Part shown: piece by piece, positions 39,417-46,347 of the stretch
How positions within the stretch are numbered: the stretch's first letter is position 1
How the letters are laid out: each line of letters starts with the position of its first letter
Source: Candidatus Dormiibacterota bacterium
GTDB taxonomy: Bacteria > Chloroflexota > Dormibacteria > Aeolococcales > Aeolococcaceae
Direction: 5' to 3'
NCBI GenBank assembly: GCA_963709585.1
Contig: CAVPXI010000013.1
Coordinates: 128,001-192,000, forward strand
Length of the DNA: 64,000 nt
Translations under genes and position numbers: made by a program
The notes under the pieces: generated by a model
The model's database searches: none
Seen by the model: only the letters and a program-made list of their open reading frames with translations
Told to the model about the DNA's origin: nothing

Positions 39417-40295
39417 ATGGTTGAAACCGATGGGCTGACGGAGCGGTTCGAGGCCAGCCGGCCCCGGCTGCGGGCGGTGGCCTCCCGCATGCTTGGCTCC
39501 CACGCCGACGCGGACGACGCCGTCCAGGAGACGTGGCTGCGGCTTGACCGTACCGACGCCGGTGCGGTGGAGAACCTCAGCGGGTGGCTGACCACGGTCG
39601 TCGCGAGGGTGTGCCTAGACCAGCTGCGCGCCCGACGGTTACGGCGCGAAGACGCCGCAGGCGACCAGCTTCCAGACGAAATCGTGGGCATCGCGGACGA
39701 CTTCGACCCAGAACAGCAGGCTCTCCTTGCCGAGTCAGTCGGGTCCGCATTGCTCGTGGTGCTTGACATGCTGGCTCCAACCGAGCGCGTTGTGTTCGTG
39801 CTGCACGACATCTTCGCGATGCCGTTCGACGAAATCGGCCCCATCGTCGGGCGATCGTCGGGCGCGGCACGGCAGATCGCCAGTCGGGCCCGGCGCCGCC
39901 TGCAAGGCGCGGACAACGTTGCCGACCTCGACCTCACCCGCGGTCGGGAGGTTGCCGCCGCGTTTCTTGCTGCCTCCCGCGCGGGCAACTTCGACGCCCT
40001 GCTGAGCTTGCTCGATCCCGACGTTGTGGTCCGGTCAGATGACACCCCCATCCGGGGGGGACGAGCCAAGCCGACGGCCGAGGGCGCCGTAGCTGTAGCC
40101 ACATGGTTCTCGAAAGGGGCGAAGGGACTCCAAGGCGCGGTCATCGACAGCGCGGCCGGCATCGTCTGGGCTCCGGGCGGACGGCTTCGGGGTGTGCTCG
40201 GCCTGACAATCACGGACGGCAAAATCGTCGAGATCAACCTGATCGCAGACCCCGAGCGCATCCGCAAGTTCGACATTGTGTTCGTGGACGGATAA
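39417..40295 (+). CDS. ECF41/SigJ-like sigma factor with SnoaL extension
   Basis: RLRAVASRMLGSHADADDAVQETWLRL, ERVVFVLHDIF, LLDPDVVVRSD; oxidoreductase/CMD neighbours typical of ECF41. Confidence 0.9.
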   Translation: MVETDGLTERFEASRPRLRAVASRMLGSHADADDAVQETWLRLDRTDAGAVENLSGWLTTVVARVCLDQLRARRLRREDAAGDQLPDEIVGIADDFDPEQQALLAESVGSALLVVLDMLAPTERVVFVLHDIFAMPFDEIGPIVGRSSGAARQIASRARRRLQGADNVADLDLTRGREVAAAFLAASRAGNFDALLSLLDPDVVVRSDDTPIRGGRAKPTAEGAVAVATWFSKGAKGLQGAVIDSAAGIVWAPGGRLRGVLGLTITDGKIVEINLIADPERIRKFDIVFVDG

Positions 40296-40379
40296 CCGCA
40301 GTCGAGACATCGACACTGTCTGCTGAACACAAACGGACGCAGCTGCCGTAGCCGAGCTCTGTAGACGCATTGTCGCGGG

Positions 40380-41853
40380 TCAGCGACCTCCGTCAGCAAT
40401 GGACCGCGCTGCACGGCACTCGCACTCCTCGGGGCAGTCCATGAGCAGTACGCGCGACGTGGCGCTGAGGAAGTTGTACTGCCAGTGGAAGCCGCTCTGA
40501 GGTGCGACGCCAAGAAGTTCCTGTACAACAATCGACGCGCCCACAACGCCGGCAAGCCCGTTGACAAAGGGAGCCGCCCCGACGAAGTCACCGCCGGTTC
40601 CGCCCAGGCTGGACCGCGTGATGTAGCCGCAGATGAGTGTACTCGCACGTCGAGCGTCCTCAAGGTTCTGGCGATGGACGGCCGGAGCAGCCGCGATGTC
40701 ATCTTCTGAGATGGGCTGGTTGTACGAACTCGGTGATGCGCTCAGGCCGAAGGCCAGTCTGTTGTGCGACACGGGCAGGATAGGACACCGCGTCTGGGGG
40801 AGCCGTGTGCGCACCGAGGAGGCACTGGCCACCCTCTCCGGCCCTCCAAAGATGGACCTGGGCGGTTGTTCCGCCTGCAGCCATGTCAACAATGGTGTGA
40901 GGCCAGAGTTGCTGTATCGCATGTCTTGGTAGGGCCTCGTCGAAACCAGTGATGACCAGTGGTGGAAGCGGAAGACTCCAATCCCTGATCCTGGGGATGA
41001 AGAGATCCAACTCCTCCGTGTGTGGTGTGACGTCGAACCTGTGCAAGGCTCGCTTGATCAGCTGCGTCTTCTCGGTGCCGAAGTCGCCGGCGCAAACGAG
41101 CGCGTACGCGCCCCAGTTTTCAGGCCCAACGACCTCTCGATCGACGGTCAACAGAACGCCGGCGAGAGGAAGTTCCGATATCGCGGCTGCCCAGCCATTG
41201 CCCACTCCTCCACAACCAGCCAGCAAACCGTCAAGGTCCGGAATCGGTATAGAGAGAGGGAAACCCGTATCGAAGGCGCCAAGCGGGCCCGACTGGCCGG
41301 ACAGGAGAGACAACTCGCGCTCCCGCTGGACGGGCGGGTGGCCGATTAAGCGAAGAAAGGTTTCCGCCGCAGCGAGACAGGCCGCACCCATTGCACCAAG
41401 AGCGTTGACGGGTTCGGGGCTCCATGGCAATCGAACTGCCTCGGCGAGGGTCGCGGCGATCCTAGCAACCCAGCCCGTCGAGTTCACGGTGATGTGCTCC
41501 GGCCCGACCTGACTGACCGTGCCTACGGTGATGACGACGTCGGCATTGGTTTCGGCGACGTCGTTGATGGTGCTGGCGTGCACACCGTCGGTGATTGCGA
41601 CGGCAAGCGCGGCACACTGCTCGGCAAGGCGAGGGTTCCCCGCCGAGACGCGGACATTAGGGCAGAACCGGAGCAATTGATTAACGAGGGTGCGCACCAG
41701 GACGTGGGCGCTTGGGTCATTTTCGAGCAGGGAATCCAGTCGGACAAGAACCGTCGATGCGGTGAGGCGAGCGTCAATGTCGTCCTCGGATTCGTGCTGA
41801 AGACCAGCTCCGAGCCGTACTGGACGGCTATCAATTCGACTGCTATCGGCCAC
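40380..41853 (-). CDS. E1-like (ThiF/UBA) enzyme with N-terminal inactive adenylation-like domain; frameshift near 40730
   Basis: GCGGVG P-loop, VDREVVGPENW, K in EKTQ, GFD; continues in another frame as YNQPISEDD...LICGY...APFVNGLAGV...CPEECEC; GTG start 1 nt after the JAB stop. Confidence 0.8.
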
Positions 41854-41854
41854 G

Positions 41855-42403
41855 TCACACGTTCGCGATGCTTGATGCATCGGCGCGCTGTACCTCGACG
41901 GGGCCAGCGGGCGACGTACCACCGATGCGGACCCTGACTGCCAGCTCTGGTTTTGCGAGATGCCTGTAGTCGCCTGCTTCCCAGACGTACCAGCCCCATG
42001 CCTGTGGATCGAGTTCGGCACCGCGACGACCGATGACGACCGCGAGCACACCGGGCGCCTTGATACTGTGGGTTCGGTCGCGGGGCGAAAGCTTCGCCGG
42101 GCTACCCCTACCGTGTGTGTGGCACACACCGAGGAGACTCATCCCGCGCGGCTCAGCCCATCGCGCCACTGTGGCGAAGACCTCTGGCGCAACACGCCAG
42201 TAGAAGGGGTGCTCTTCGACACCCGCGCCGTGGGGGAAGACCACGGCCTGTACAACCGCTCGCTCCGCCCGAGAGCCGAGCCAGAAAACGCCGGCCTCGC
42301 ATCCGACCAAGCCGGCATCTCGCACAGCCGCGAGGGTGGCTTCGACGGCCTCAGCAGGGACGACCCAGGATTCAATGCCTGGATACGGATCGATCTCTGT
42401 CAA
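41855..42403 (-). CDS. JAB/MPN+ metalloisopeptidase (DUB-like)
   Basis: N-terminal E (CEAG) plus HTHG...LSPRD JAMM motif; 4-nt overlap with the upstream gene. Confidence 0.88.
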   Translation of the reverse strand: MTEIDPYPGIESWVVPAEAVEATLAAVRDAGLVGCEAGVFWLGSRAERAVVQAVVFPHGAGVEEHPFYWRVAPEVFATVARWAEPRGMSLLGVCHTHGRGSPAKLSPRDRTHSIKAPGVLAVVIGRRGAELDPQAWGWYVWEAGDYRHLAKPELAVRVRIGGTSPAGPVEVQRADASSIANV

Positions 42404-42735
42404 TCGACCGTACCACCAGGCGTGATCTCTTCGACCAAGTCGAAGTGCAGCTCATGCTGTTCGTCACCATGGCGATCAGCCAACTGGTCCAGTGTCTCCT
42501 CAAGGTTGGTGATCCTCATCCCGCCGATAACGAGGAAGTACCGATACGTGTCTCGCTCCTGCCGGTCGCGGACGCCAAAAAAGGCCATTGCCTCCTCGCG
42601 AACCACTCCCACGTGCGTGGGCGGCGGGTAGGCGTGGTGAAAGGGGCGGGCAGCCGGGAGGTACGACACTTTGGCCTCGATTTCCCGTGGATGCTCGCTC
42701 GGCGTGCTGTTGTCGGTCGGGTTGGTAACGGTCAT
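42400..42735 (-). CDS. Probable ubiquitin-like (beta-grasp) protein precursor
   Basis: 111 aa, GGAGG RBS; beta-beta-alpha-beta pattern (TxVGVVREEAMAFFGV), ends LHFDLVEEITPGG-TVD; first gene of the JAB/E1 operon. Confidence 0.7.
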   Translation of the reverse strand: MTVTNPTDNSTPSEHPREIEAKVSYLPAARPFHHAYPPPTHVGVVREEAMAFFGVRDRQERDTYRYFLVIGGMRITNLEETLDQLADRHGDEQHELHFDLVEEITPGGTVD

Positions 42736-42769
42736 GGTGGCCTCCTCCAACGGCTCTTCGTGGTAGTCT

Positions 42770-42808
42770 TGTTACGGGAAATGGTGTACTGCTGGAAATA
42801 TCGTAACA
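42770..42808. promoter_or_regulatory. Candidate operator inverted repeat between divergent operons
   Basis: TGTTACG-N25-CGTAACA in the AT-richer intergenic gap. Confidence 0.35.
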
Positions 42809-42884
42809 GACGGGGCTGCTCGGTTGCAAACCCCTGGGTCCGAGCGCAAACTGCGTAACTCGAAGCCACCGGAGGAGAGACGCC

Positions 42885-44075
42885 ATGGATGCCCCGTTAG
42901 TCGACGCGCGCACTGAGGCCGGGTACTCGCAGGAGGACGTCGCCGCGGCTCTCGGGGTGAGTCGAGCGATGGTCAGTTATTGGGAATCCGGCAAGCGGGA
43001 GCCCAATGACCGTCAACTCGTCGCACTTGCTCGCCTCTACCGACTGCCCGTTGGCGTGCTGCTTGGGACGGAACCTCTACCTAGTCGGGCGGACGAGGCG
43101 CGAATGCTGTTCCGAGGCGCCGAGAACGAGCTCGCAGGCGAAGCGAAGACCGGAGTGGCCGAGTTTGTCCAGTTTCTGGACAACTACGCCAGGCTGGCCA
43201 AGGCGCTGGGTTTTGAAATCCGCGGATTAGCGCAAAGCCCGTTCCTCATGAGGATCGGATATGAGACGGCCGAAGATGCGCGCCGGAAGGCAGAGGAAGT
43301 CCGAGCGCATTTGCGATTGGCTATGGGACCCATTAGCGACATCGACGCCGTGGCTGAGCTTCTCGGAATAACAGTCTTTCGAGCTGCACTCGGAGAAGAC
43401 CTGACGCACGGACTATCGGGGGCGTTCTTCGCGCACCCCGAGGTCGGATTCTCGATACTCGTAAATCTGCAGATGACGCCGGGCCGCAGACGTTTTACCG
43501 TCGCTCATGAGATAGCACACGCCTTGTTCCATAGTCGTTCCGATAGGTACGTATTGTCACGGCCCGCAGGTGGCGCCAAGGAGCAGTTCGCGGACGCGTT
43601 TGCCGGCGAATTCCTGATGCCGAGTGAGGGTGTTCGCCGGGTCATGGAAGAACAGGGAGTAGGGCCACGCGTCACCGACCCCGCGGTCGTGATCCACCTA
43701 CAGCGCTACTTCAATGTGTCCTACCCGACGGCATTGGTCCGCCTGCTGAAGGCGAAGTTCATCGATCGCGACCATTTTGACCAGTTCAAAGACCTTCGAC
43801 CCGTCCTTTTCGCTCAAGCACTCGGCTATGAGGTTGGGGACGACGAGTTCGGTCAGAAGCCGGAGGAATGGCGACTCCGCAGATACCCTCGTCGCTTCTT
43901 AGCGCTCATTCGGCAGGGCGTCCGGAGCGGGAAGATTTCGGCCGGCTCAGCCGCGAGTCTGGCAGGACTGTCGCTGGACGATGTCGAAGAGCTTTGCATG
44001 GACCAGCAGCAAAGCGTTGCGTCCCGGGAGATCAAGGAATACCAAGACAGCGGTGTCTTTGCCGCCGCCGTTTAG
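42885..44075 (+). CDS. XRE HTH fused to ImmA/IrrE (Peptidase_M78) zinc metallopeptidase
   Basis: SQEDVAAALGVSRAMVSYWESGKREP HTH; RRRFTVAHEIAH HExxH; EQFADAFAGEFLMP. Confidence 0.93.
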   Translation: MDAPLVDARTEAGYSQEDVAAALGVSRAMVSYWESGKREPNDRQLVALARLYRLPVGVLLGTEPLPSRADEARMLFRGAENELAGEAKTGVAEFVQFLDNYARLAKALGFEIRGLAQSPFLMRIGYETAEDARRKAEEVRAHLRLAMGPISDIDAVAELLGITVFRAALGEDLTHGLSGAFFAHPEVGFSILVNLQMTPGRRRFTVAHEIAHALFHSRSDRYVLSRPAGGAKEQFADAFAGEFLMPSEGVRRVMEEQGVGPRVTDPAVVIHLQRYFNVSYPTALVRLLKAKFIDRDHFDQFKDLRPVLFAQALGYEVGDDEFGQKPEEWRLRRYPRRFLALIRQGVRSGKISAGSAASLAGLSLDDVEELCMDQQQSVASREIKEYQDSGVFAAAV

Positions 44076-44718
44076 GACGATCGTTGATACGAACGTCCTG
44101 CGCTATTTCTTGTTCGTCGACCGTACGAGCATTCTGGCAACGGTGCTTGGTCGACCCATGGGGGTTCCGCGGATAGTCTACGATCCGGATGAAGGCGAGC
44201 CCCCCGAGAATGCGATGAGTGAAATACGTCGCAGCATCTTGGTGCAGCGTGAGCGGGGCGATGAGTTGACACGATCCGATGAGGGACGCGCCGAGGCGCG
44301 GCGCAATGCGTCCAGGTTGTCGTCGATCGATGCGCTGCTCGGCAACGGAGACGTCGTCACTGTAGACATGTCACGGGAGGAGCGAGAGCTGTTTGCGGCG
44401 CTGACTGATCACAATCGCGCGGGTGACTTTGGTCTCAAGATCGCGCTTGGGCATGGCGAGGCAGCATGTGTTGCGATTGCAGTCGAGAGGAGTGTCATCC
44501 TCGCCACCAACGATGCGGACGCTTTGACCGCGTACGAGCGGCTTGCACCAACGGGCGCTCACGCGCGAATTCGAGGTGCGCTCAGAGACGCGGCAGAAGG
44601 CGGCCTAATTTCTCGTGCCACCGCAAATGCTACTCATATTGAAATGTCACGTCTCGGGCTGTGGGATATCGAGCTTCCGTTCTCCCTCGGAGAGTTGGAG
44701 GATGATTCCGGCATATGA
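44053..44718 (+). CDS. PIN-like domain protein
   Basis: IVDTNVL, LGHGEAACVAIA, LATNDADA acidic PIN motifs; overlaps the end of the ImmA/IrrE gene. Confidence 0.75.
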   Translation: MSLPPPFRTIVDTNVLRYFLFVDRTSILATVLGRPMGVPRIVYDPDEGEPPENAMSEIRRSILVQRERGDELTRSDEGRAEARRNASRLSSIDALLGNGDVVTVDMSREERELFAALTDHNRAGDFGLKIALGHGEAACVAIAVERSVILATNDADALTAYERLAPTGAHARIRGALRDAAEGGLISRATANATHIEMSRLGLWDIELPFSLGELEDDSGI

Positions 44719-45071: not shown

Positions 45072-45974
45072 CTATTGGTCCATCGACGGTAGGATGGCCA
45101 CGTCAAGTGACGCGCTCCTCGTGGCCGCGCGAGCTCCAAGTCTCGGCGGTATCCAAATGCCCCGGCGTTGCCAGTTTGCGTTGGGGAGCGCGGTCCGTGC
45201 CAGTTCTTCGAACTCGCGGTCGTCGAACGACCGTTGCGGGGGCCATTCGATTTGGTGTAGCCCGGAGGGCCAGATCCGCACCAACCCCGGGGACATGGTC
45301 ATGACCTGGGCATCCGCGGGACGCAGGGTGTGGCCCAGGATGTGGAACGCCACGGTGCCAATGCGCAGCCCAACCCAGTATCGGTGCTCTTCAGCAGCCG
45401 GCTGCAACGAACCGGAACCCTCGACGGAGTAAGCGACGAGGTATGCGAGGCCGACTGACGGTCCTCGGTGCTTGGCCAGCCACACCGTGAGCTGCTCGGG
45501 GAGGACATATGGCCGCAGGTCACGTGCGTTGTAGATAGCGCTGATGTGCTCACGCGGTATGGGCAGCCCAAGTTTGCGGTTCGCGCCCTGGAGCATGATC
45601 GCGGTCTTGGCCGCCCAAAAGCCCAAGGTTCGCAACTCCGCTACGCCGATCGGCAGCGCGATCGGGCCGAGCATGGGCCGCAATATCGGGATGGTGTCGT
45701 CCTCGAGGCGGTGCATCCAGCCCGTGTTGCACTCATGGCACACAATCGGCAAGCGCAAGCGCAGGCTCTGCTTGGTGTCGATGCGAACGCGCTTCGGGTC
45801 GTCGAGAAGCCCTGCCCGGCGTTTCACCACACCGCGTCCGTAGAGCTCCGCGAGGCGCTTGAGCAGCCAACTGGGAATGACATCCTCACGACTGTTGGCT
45901 ATGCCTCCGCACCAAGTGCAGCGCGTTCGCGGCCTCGGCTGTCGCGTTGGCCGCGGCATTGCGCCTTCAGTCAT
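45072..45974 (-). CDS. HNH-like zinc-finger endonuclease with uncharacterised C-terminus
   Basis: CTWCG...SREDVIPSWL...VCHECNTGWMHRLE; usual EH appears as ED. Confidence 0.7.
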   Translation of the reverse strand: MTEGAMPRPTRQPRPRTRCTWCGGIANSREDVIPSWLLKRLAELYGRGVVKRRAGLLDDPKRVRIDTKQSLRLRLPIVCHECNTGWMHRLEDDTIPILRPMLGPIALPIGVAELRTLGFWAAKTAIMLQGANRKLGLPIPREHISAIYNARDLRPYVLPEQLTVWLAKHRGPSVGLAYLVAYSVEGSGSLQPAAEEHRYWVGLRIGTVAFHILGHTLRPADAQVMTMSPGLVRIWPSGLHQIEWPPQRSFDDREFEELARTALPNANWQRRGIWIPPRLGARAATRSASLDVAILPSMDQ

Positions 45975-46185: not shown

Positions 46186-46347
46186 ATGACGGTTGCTGAA
46201 GCCGCAGACGTACTGGGCGTCTCCACCCAGACGATATACAACTACATCTATGCCGGAAAGCTTCGGGCGCGGAGGCCGGCCGAACGCTACATCCTGCGCG
46301 CGCGCGACGTGGCTGCCATCGCGACGAAGCGTAAGGCTCGACGCTAA
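46186..46347 (+). CDS. Excisionase-like HTH_17 DNA-binding protein (53 aa, not in the ORF track)
   Basis: MTVAEAADVLGVSTQTIYNYIYAGKLRARR...YILRARDV; AAGAGGGG RBS; in-frame stop upstream. Confidence 0.8.
   Translation: MTVAEAADVLGVSTQTIYNYIYAGKLRARRPAERYILRARDVAAIATKRKARR

Follow-up and report, generated by a model that had tools for sequence, protein, structure and literature searches.

The Bil systems established that true ubiquitination, by an E1 activating enzyme and an E2 conjugating enzyme, takes place in bacteria. In the available parts of the Bil structural, Cap2 and bacterial Ubl diversity preprints, these systems are described with an E2. The available parts of the Bil phage-assembly preprint report variants with a single-domain ubiquitin-like protein (Ubl) or without the deubiquitinase, and none without the E2. 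Related gene sets were classified earlier by Iyer, Burroughs and Aravind in 2006; the part of that survey used here lists classes 6a-6e, mobile E1/JAB/Ubl systems that each contain an E2-like domain or gene, and class 4b, an uncharacterised Ubl-JAB-E1 operon without E2 whose E1 is fused to a rhodanese (PMC1779556). Here we analyse a Ubl-JAB-E1 operon at positions 40,380 to 42,735 of a 64,000-nucleotide stretch of DNA from a Candidatus Dormiibacterota bacterium (contig CAVPXI010000013.1); we call this whole stretch the window. The source genome, that of a soil bacterium, amounts to 3.52 Mb in 24 contigs, is 88.8% complete and has ∼65% G+C. The operon belongs to a Bil-related clade, and the absence of an E2 is a property of this clade. 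Our full-text literature searches returned no description of this E2-less architecture, although the supplementary operon lists of the preprints, which lay outside the search, could hold cases.

All three genes lie on the minus strand, tightly packed, in the order Ubl-JAB-E1 (window list of open reading frames, ORFs). The features of the operon are:

42400..42735, minus strand: Ubl gene, 111 aa from an ATG; PADLOC BilA at 1.6e-4; beta-grasp model.
41855..42403, minus strand: JAB/JAMM metallopeptidase gene, 182 aa; Pfam Prok-JAB; PADLOC BilC at 6.8e-4.
40728..41853, minus strand: 5' part of the E1 gene, with an arginine finger (SRP), an inactive adenylation domain of BilD_N type and an active one with GCGGVGNGW, the catalytic Asp and a crossover-loop Cys.
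40727, no strand: extra base that breaks the E1 frame, left out in the contigs of sequencing runs X1 and X2.
40380..40726, minus strand: 3' part of the E1 gene, with a helical CYS insertion (LICGY), FxxAAPFV, a beta-hairpin, CPEECEC and an 11-residue tail.

The Ubl and JAB genes overlap by 4 nt, 1 nt separates the JAB stop from the GTG start of E1, and a gene for an extracytoplasmic-function sigma factor ends 85 nt downstream of E1. An earlier note, written from the sequence alone, had described the same coupling (a 4-nt overlap and a 1-nt gap) and had concluded that the operon leaves no space for an E2. Both statements hold in the window ORF list, with gaps of -4 nt and 1 nt and the sigma-factor gene 85 nt past E1. 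The kinship to Bil that the note had suggested is supported: PADLOC models match all three proteins to Bil (BilA 1.6e-4, BilC 6.8e-4 and BilD 1.5e-20), and the E1 resembles a solved BilD in profile and fold (see below). NCBIfam gave no match for the Ubl, the JAB or the E1.

The Ubl is predicted to be a single beta-grasp domain, preceded by a disordered N-terminal stretch of ∼18 aa and followed by Gly107 and a GTVD tail (the ORF, 42400-42750, offers an alternative TTG start at 42750 that would give 116 aa). Pfam contained no match for it. An AlphaFold model built from a ten-orthologue alignment is a confident beta-grasp (predicted local distance difference test score, pLDDT, 82.2), and its best matches in the PDB are Caldiarchaeum ubiquitin and SUMO (6fnn_C among the top). 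The predicted fold, at a pLDDT of 82 with ubiquitin and SUMO as best matches, agrees with the beta-grasp expected by the earlier note. In the ten aligned Ubls the N-terminal extension varies, the first glycine of the "GG" (G107 in the 111-aa numbering) is invariant (10/10), and the following column varies. The processed end is thus more likely ...ITPG than ...ITPGG. The note had described a 111-aa protein ending in PGG-TVD; the length and the end are as stated (the C-terminus reads ...EEITPGGTVD), while the GG did not stand as the processed end, since only its first glycine is invariant. In the Ubls of the clade 1–4 residues follow the invariant glycine, so that processing would be needed. The Ubls of two relatives with four-gene operons, L101 and L102, terminate at the glycine itself.

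The second gene had been read as a JAMM peptidase, an assignment that stands: Pfam Prok-JAB scores above its cut-off (E 1.1e-6; 28.9 bits, cut-off 25), and the metal-site residues are kept, the JAMM set E36, H95-x-H97, S106 and D109 being conserved in a 10-sequence alignment. The JAB presumably both processes the pro-Ubl and acts as a deconjugase.

The E1 (∼490 aa, 40380-41853, minus strand) starts with a GTG at 41853; its frame hits a stop at 40699-40701, and the remainder, down to 40380, is read in a different frame. Pfam recognises ThiF, weakly, on the long ORF. Homologues of 478–521 aa, at most 49% identical to the window E1, carry PF27312 (Atlas name BilD_N), and both pieces of the window E1 align with full-length homologues from end to end, the break falling between ...ERITE and NQPISEDD... 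A profile of the E1 homologues matched BilD of Ensifer aridi (PDB 8tyz_A) at 1.4e-31. P0001, the closest homologue (49% identity), yielded a model of pLDDT 92.3 that superposed on the same chain over its full length (513 columns, E 2.9e-28, template modelling score 0.69). The motifs that the earlier note had picked out, namely a degenerate N-terminal domain, GCGGVG, LICGY and CPEECEC, were all recovered, within what is predicted to be a BilD fold. The zinc site is of Cys4 type and combines one crossover-loop Cys with the C-x3-C-x-C of CPEECEC.

Across the E2-less E1s the catalytic Cys is kept in 58/58, the crossover Cys in 59/59 and the C-x-C in 57-58/58. The E2-less clade is under selection, to judge from the retention of these residues, of the JAMM motif and of the Ubl glycine. 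Two further cysteines are specific to the branch, one in the RFC motif of the inactive domain (54/56) and one in the GCG of the glycine loop (58/59); neither was present in any E2-bearing relative examined. A predicted complex of the E1 and Ubl of locus L006 (Gaiellaceae) scored 0.62 against 0.07 for the best control, a mark reached by 116 of 157 solved complexes and by 2 of 215 mismatched pairs. Its runs agreed in at least 95% of contacts, with a partner pLDDT of at least 86. In this model the Ubl packs its invariant Y-L-P against the C-terminal hairpin of the E1, a conserved element that is the beta-hairpin encoded by the 3' part of the gene, and the Ubl tail points toward the crossover loop. 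The model supports binding of the predicted partners; a like complex (8tyz) has already been solved, so that its pass may reflect only likeness to 8tyz.

The break in the E1 frame needed an explanation, and the earlier note had allowed for an error. We compared the E1 stretch with Logan contigs of four soil runs, one of which is possibly the source sample. The extra base at 40727 sits inside a two-base run. It is absent from a contig of X1 (243 nt, 0 other differences) and from a contig of X2 (424 nt, 6 differences), runs from different studies, both contigs having a depth of only ∼3 and possibly deriving from other strains. Read without the base, the E1 continues ...ERITESYNQPISEDD..., as in the homologues. 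Since the base is missing in two independent runs, the frameshift is probably an assembly error or a strain variant, the former being the likelier, in line with the note. The window copy might instead be a dead remnant, with a real frameshift in a decaying operon; the extra base is in the assembly, the window E1 sits on a long branch (0.96), and eight other loci carry broken E1 genes. The contigs of the two runs, one otherwise identical, speak against decay within the limits of their depth and strain origin, and both E1 pieces keep every conserved residue beside intact Ubl and JAB genes. We consider a dead remnant quite unlikely. The eight other E1 genes, split over at least two frames, are those of L007, L011, L014, L035, L066, L079, L087 and L095 (in L011 the JAB as well). 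They may be decaying, or sequencing or assembly errors in metagenome-assembled genomes (MAGs) would fit.

We wondered whether the architecture recurs elsewhere. Genome contigs scanned with a single protein yielded no relative; an alignment-based scan did recover relatives, with 15 loci in species-representative genomes. From a scan of metagenome contigs the best 80 of 134 relatives were kept. Profiles of the Ubl, JAB and E1 were then mapped on six-frame translations of the loci. All three genes were present in 72/94 related loci, and 20 of the other 22 end at a contig edge. The remaining two, L092 and L093, show one truncated E1 seen twice. In both (L092:3971-5008 and L093:3971-5008) the E1 begins at profile position 139, and ∼4 kb upstream contain neither JAB nor Ubl; it may be what is left after truncation, or else the architecture is a different one.

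In 71 of the 72 complete loci the gap from Ubl to JAB is at most 60 nt (median 11), and Ubl, JAB and E1 are directly adjacent. The lone exception, L013 (Pelomonas sp. Root1237, 29% identity), has a 455-nt gap that houses a BilB-like gene. The earlier note had left open whether homologous operons contain an E2; with Ubl, JAB and E1 adjacent, 71/72 are without one. Exhaustive search of 1.84 billion representatives with the E1 profile returned 201 proteins at E<=1e-30 and 1164 at E<=1e-10. The scores drop steeply after the best ∼25 (a cut read from the score list by eye), which points to a small family inside a wider group of Bil E1s. Of 160 other genomes from the window's order, 4 match the E1 at 1e-20, all far more weakly than the window's own; two of them hold four-gene operons (L101 and L102) and the other two are L103 and L104. 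The system is sporadic in this order. L103 (G455) and L104 (G493), from genomes of the window's own family and genus, hold more distant E1s, and past its C-I-C the L104 E1 has a tail reminiscent of the segment with which Type II BilD docks its E2, in the form that the preprint prints.

An E2 could also sit outside the gaps between the genes. We built an E2 profile from 11 sequences of the L013 BilB family. It recovered its positive controls, L013 at 9.5e-84 and the four-gene operons L102 and L101 at 3.3e-31 and 2.2e-18. On the other 94 loci scanned it gave nothing better than E 1.3, and on the window's own genome (88.8% complete) its best match was only 0.17. PADLOC BilB and Pfam Prok-E2_A to E had no match in that genome. 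In the scanned ORFs of 13 of the 14 annotated loci PADLOC BilB had no match either, L013 being the exception. An E2 hidden as a fusion in the JAB, the Ubl or the E1 was considered and rejected: the JAB runs collinear with the BilC model and the E1 with the BilD model, and the Ubl is extended only at its N-terminus.

The phylogeny of the E1s follows the presence of E2. A quick maximum-likelihood tree of 68 E1s (59 E2-less, 5 E2-bearing and 4 unlabelled rows; the long-branch sequence P0040 was dropped) placed the 59 E2-less E1s on one side of a branch and the five E2-bearing ones on the other, with a Shimodaira-Hasegawa-like approximate likelihood ratio test support of 99; one state change suffices. 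An earlier tree with fewer outgroups gave the same split a support of 97. Of 58 locus-derived E2-less rows, 50 come from loci with three verified genes, 6 from loci with JAB and E1, and 2 from loci with E1 only, at contig ends. The window E1, itself long-branched (0.96), falls inside the E2-less branch, in an 11-row subgroup with 96% support that counts an Egibacteraceae MAG among its members. The branch contains MAGs of Acidobacteriota (Terriglobia) and Actinomycetota (Gaiellales, Egibacteraceae). PADLOC BilD, run over 400 genomes of the class of L013, found only the genome of L013 itself (1/400), and no further E2-bearing outgroup.

The C-terminal ends of the E1s add to this picture. BilD binds its E2 through residues 490-504 near the C-terminus, according to the part of the Bil structural preprint used here, and the BilD sequence printed there has ∼42 residues after the C-x-C by hand count. 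Among 79 E2-less E1s (one locus without C-x-C dropped, duplicate loci retained) the median is 8 residues, the range 2–34, and 49 have 9 or fewer; the tails are unconserved. The five E2-bearing relatives have 16–22 residues after the C-x-C, the window E1 11.

E2-less Ubl-JAB-E1 operons are known in sulfur metabolism: rows 4a-4e in Table 1 of the 2006 survey are of this kind (PMC1779556). The window operon might by that token encode a sulfur carrier of ThiS/MoaD/CysO type with a MoeB/MoeZ enzyme and a Mec-like JAB, serving cofactor or cysteine synthesis. In the rows concerned, as tabulated, most E1-bearing operons have a rhodanese-fused E1, row 4e has SirA instead, and rows 4a and 4c-4e have biosynthetic or sulfur neighbours (PMC1779556). 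The window E1 is of the two-domain BilD type with a CYS insertion and has no Pfam rhodanese match. No sulfur gene adjoins the operon in the window and none is conserved in the 94 loci, which bears out the statement of the earlier note that no sulfur-transfer gene lies nearby. Nor is any cofactor or cysteine biosynthesis gene conserved beside the operon in these loci; the homologues, for which the note had considered a place in such clusters, lie instead beside CapH/CapP-type regulators and defence genes. A sulfur carrier would call for a single-domain homodimeric E1, often fused to a rhodanese, and for sulfur or cofactor neighbours, and we find none of them. We rejected this role, which we regard as scarcely credible.

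The regulator and the region between it and the operon are:

42736..42884, no strand: stretch between the divergent Ubl operon and regulator gene, where promoter and operator presumably lie.
42885..44075, plus strand: XRE helix-turn-helix (HTH) and M78 (ImmA/IrrE) fusion, 396 aa, of CapH/CapP or RmrA type (Pfam, PADLOC).

The fusion matches Pfam Peptidase_M78 at 9.4e-19 and HTH_3 at 2.6e-15. In PADLOC, RmrA (antitoxin-type) ranks first (7e-29), before capP (5.7e-21) and capH (5.4e-7). All-vs-all clustering of the flanking ORFs showed HTH/M78 regulators in 48 loci including the window, almost always on the opposite strand, and revealed no other widely conserved neighbour; relatives carry either the same HTH-M78 fusion or a split pair of CapH-like and CapP-like proteins. 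CapH/CapP-type pairs activate immune operons after DNA damage and are known beside Ubl operon classes 6a and 6e, according to the available part of a study of such regulators (10.1101/2022.04.27.489752). By analogy, we presume that the 396-aa protein is a damage-responsive regulator of the operon. A promoter scan found no sigma-70-like site in 40200-43000. An inverted-repeat search of 42736-42884 gave two weak pairs at the edges, and no operator is proposed.

Further neighbours recall mobile defence islands. PADLOC named Mko, Tmt, a DRT-associated exonuclease, PD-T7-1, SoFic and several PDC families beside the 14 annotated loci, and tyrosine integrases occur in 11 loci. The window itself shows a G+C dip at ∼40-46 kb that spans the operon stretch, and a 53-aa ORF at 46186-46347 (plus strand) whose product by eye resembles an excisionase-type HTH. 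The excisionase-like ORF and the G+C dip suggest that the operon lies in an island remnant.

Taken together, these results place the operon in a conserved, E2-less branch that is sister to Bil, and suggest that this branch carries out a Bil-like conjugation that is independent of an E2. We give this reading a probability of roughly 0.6. Such a conjugation system probably serves defence. Judging from CapH/CapP homology, the divergent HTH-M78 regulator would silence the operon until a signal of stress or infection arrives. The JAB would then trim the pro-Ubl behind its invariant glycine, releasing a short tail (GTVD in the window), as the BilC/BilA pair leads one to expect. The two-domain E1 would adenylate this glycine and load the Ubl as a thioester on the cysteine of its CYS domain, a step suggested by the conserved residues and the E1-Ubl model. 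Finally, the E1 itself may attach the Ubl to amino groups of its targets, which are probably phage proteins, and the JAB may reverse the modification. Direct transfer by the E1 is what one would expect from an operon with no E2 in cis or detectable in the genome, and from a clade in which most E1s are without an E2-docking segment. That the E1 is a self-sufficient ligase, which either relays the Ubl to a second cysteine found only in the clade (the RFC cysteine is a candidate) or conjugates it directly, we consider a long shot.

Several points weigh against this reading, on the side of the missing E2 as well as on the side of defence. The earlier note had proposed E2-independent conjugation and defence, or a Bil derivative; its proposal finds support as far as a Bil-related clade without E2 is concerned, while conjugation, targets and phage defence are all things that we infer from sequence. 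The E1 tree is unrooted, so loss of E2 and its primitive absence are not separable. In 14 of the 79 E2-less E1s the tail reaches at least 16 residues after the C-x-C. Four of the five Pfam Prok-E2 models had no match in any control genome, and their negatives are weak. PADLOC BilB found nothing across the genomes of 11 relatives, yet it also missed the known BilB of L013, which makes that search uninformative. An E2 could still be used and be encoded elsewhere or be unrecognisable, either as a host E2-like protein or as a phage protein that completes the cascade. E2s are small and diverge fast: the L013-type BilB family has no Pfam domain, and PADLOC BilB sees the L013 E2 only at 4.8e-4. The own genome is 88.8% complete, with 8000 bases of it outside the search, and the E1s retain their catalytic Cys without exception, which is what passing the Ubl on to another enzyme would demand. 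However, the operon is sporadic and lies in islands with integrases, so that reliance on an unlinked E2 would be fragile, and no extra gene is conserved in the 94 loci. The E2 profile, which detects even the diverged actinobacterial E2s (2.2e-18 to 3.3e-31), drew a blank in the own genome. In most E1s of the clade the C-terminal segment where BilD docks its E2 is absent. An E2 that is encoded elsewhere or unrecognisable seems unlikely to us.

As for defence, its context rests on PADLOC family names, and should the strain truly carry the extra base, this copy of the operon is inactive. The system could also be a modifier that tags host proteins upon stress or DNA damage, under a regulator of IrrE/DdrO type, rather than an anti-phage system. 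Its sole conserved partner is an HTH/M78 pair of CapH/CapP-IrrE/DdrO type, and such pairs react to DNA damage according to the consulted part of the regulator study (10.1101/2022.04.27.489752); the viral-contig scan found no relative, and no phage target is known. The same regulators, however, accompany many anti-phage operons, again in the consulted part (10.1101/2022.04.27.489752). The neighbours of the related loci are mostly defence families, and the closest characterised relatives are anti-phage systems in the available parts of the Bil structural and phage-assembly preprints. We judge a host stress modifier to be unlikely as well. The regulator could moreover belong to another module: a PIN-like ORF (43981-44718) follows the HTH-M78 gene, and the two could form a separate toxin-antitoxin-like module. 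With these points weighed, E2-independent conjugation by a Bil-like branch stays the reading that we prefer.

A few observations on neighbouring genes stand apart from this argument. The PIN-like ORF lies on the plus strand and overlaps the end of the HTH-M78 gene; an IVDTN motif, PIN-like by eye, opens its conserved part. It shows a weak pairwise likeness (E 4e-4) to a PDC-S70 protein that follows the regulator of L004, and has no match in any of the profile libraries (Pfam, PADLOC and NCBIfam). At 45072-45974 (minus strand) a 300-aa protein with two CxxC near its N-terminus shares the low-GC stretch of the operon. Pfam, PADLOC and NCBIfam held no match for it, and the Atlas places it in large clusters of unnamed hypothetical proteins. 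Just downstream of E1, on the same strand, a protein of ∼79 aa occurs in 12 loci (L002, L037, L038, L044, L052, L056, L067, L072, L088, L090, L091 and L096; for example L002:2168-2407, plus strand), and none occurs in the window. With CPNCG at its start, a glycine-rich hydrophobic middle and CPxCG near its end, it may be a small zinc-ribbon protein of the membrane. For one sub-branch it could serve as an accessory effector or be a target. Downstream of E1, L009:7732-9662, L010:8653-10851 and L014:8425-10256 (minus strand, Gaiellales-type) share a second module, made of an M78 peptidase of ∼180 aa, an HTH protein and a 273-394-aa protein without known family.

A branch without E2 that spans two phyla raises the question of whether an E1 of canonical type can conjugate alone. 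A second question is whether the E1-only pathway preceded the E1-E2 relay or followed it; if E1-only conjugation is true and the branch is basal, the clade would be a living example of a pre-E2 stage of ubiquitination. The system is small (three genes in ∼2.4 kb plus a regulator) and intact natural homologues exist, which makes it amenable to standard biochemistry and phage assays. Defence-finder models that demand BilB will overlook the branch.

How does the operon compare with known systems? The architecture of the clade fits neither class 4b nor classes 6a-6e, as these are defined in the part of the 2006 survey used here (PMC1779556). Its closest characterised counterpart is BilABCD (Type I/II; Collimonas sp. 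OK412 and Ensifer aridi TW10, PDB 8tyz/8tz0). Both have a Ubl with a C-terminal Gly and a short tail, a BilC-like JAB, and an E1 with inactive and active adenylation domains, a helical CYS insertion and a Cys4 zinc site. They also share the order Ubl-(E2)-JAB-E1, an upstream regulator of CapH/CapP type and a defence-island setting. Unlike BilABCD, the clade is without BilB in 71/72 three-gene loci and in the window operon, and its E1s form a separate branch (99%). Most of its E1s end 2–9 residues past the C-x-C, where BilD bears the E2-docking segment; they carry two cysteines of their own (RFC and GCG), and the Ubl is a single beta-grasp. Because it has no separate E2, the operon is not a member of BilABCD as defined.

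Four-gene operons in the order Ubl-E2-JAB-E1 occur in Deinococcus aetherius pDAETH-1, Ralstonia pickettii pRp12D0, Pelomonas (L013), L101 and L102. These are the nearest E2-bearing relatives of the clade E1 (Deinococcus E1: 33% identity, E 6e-26). They share its gene order, and an HTH/M78 gene lies upstream in Deinococcus, Ralstonia and L013, divergently in the first two, but they differ in an E2 gene encoding 140–167 aa between Ubl and JAB.

In how the system would work, the nearest analogue is found further away. To our knowledge, archaeal sampylation by SAMP, UbaA and JAMM1 and the TtuB/TtuC system of Thermus are the only known cases in which an E1 conjugates a Ubl to proteins without E2 or E3. 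These systems use a JAMM peptidase for reversal; their E1s are MoeB-type homodimers that also act in sulfur transfer, and their Ubls resemble ThiS and MoaD. By contrast, the E1 of the present clade is predicted to be a pseudo-heterodimer of BilD type with a CYS domain of its own, and the fold of its Ubl is nearest to ubiquitin and SUMO.

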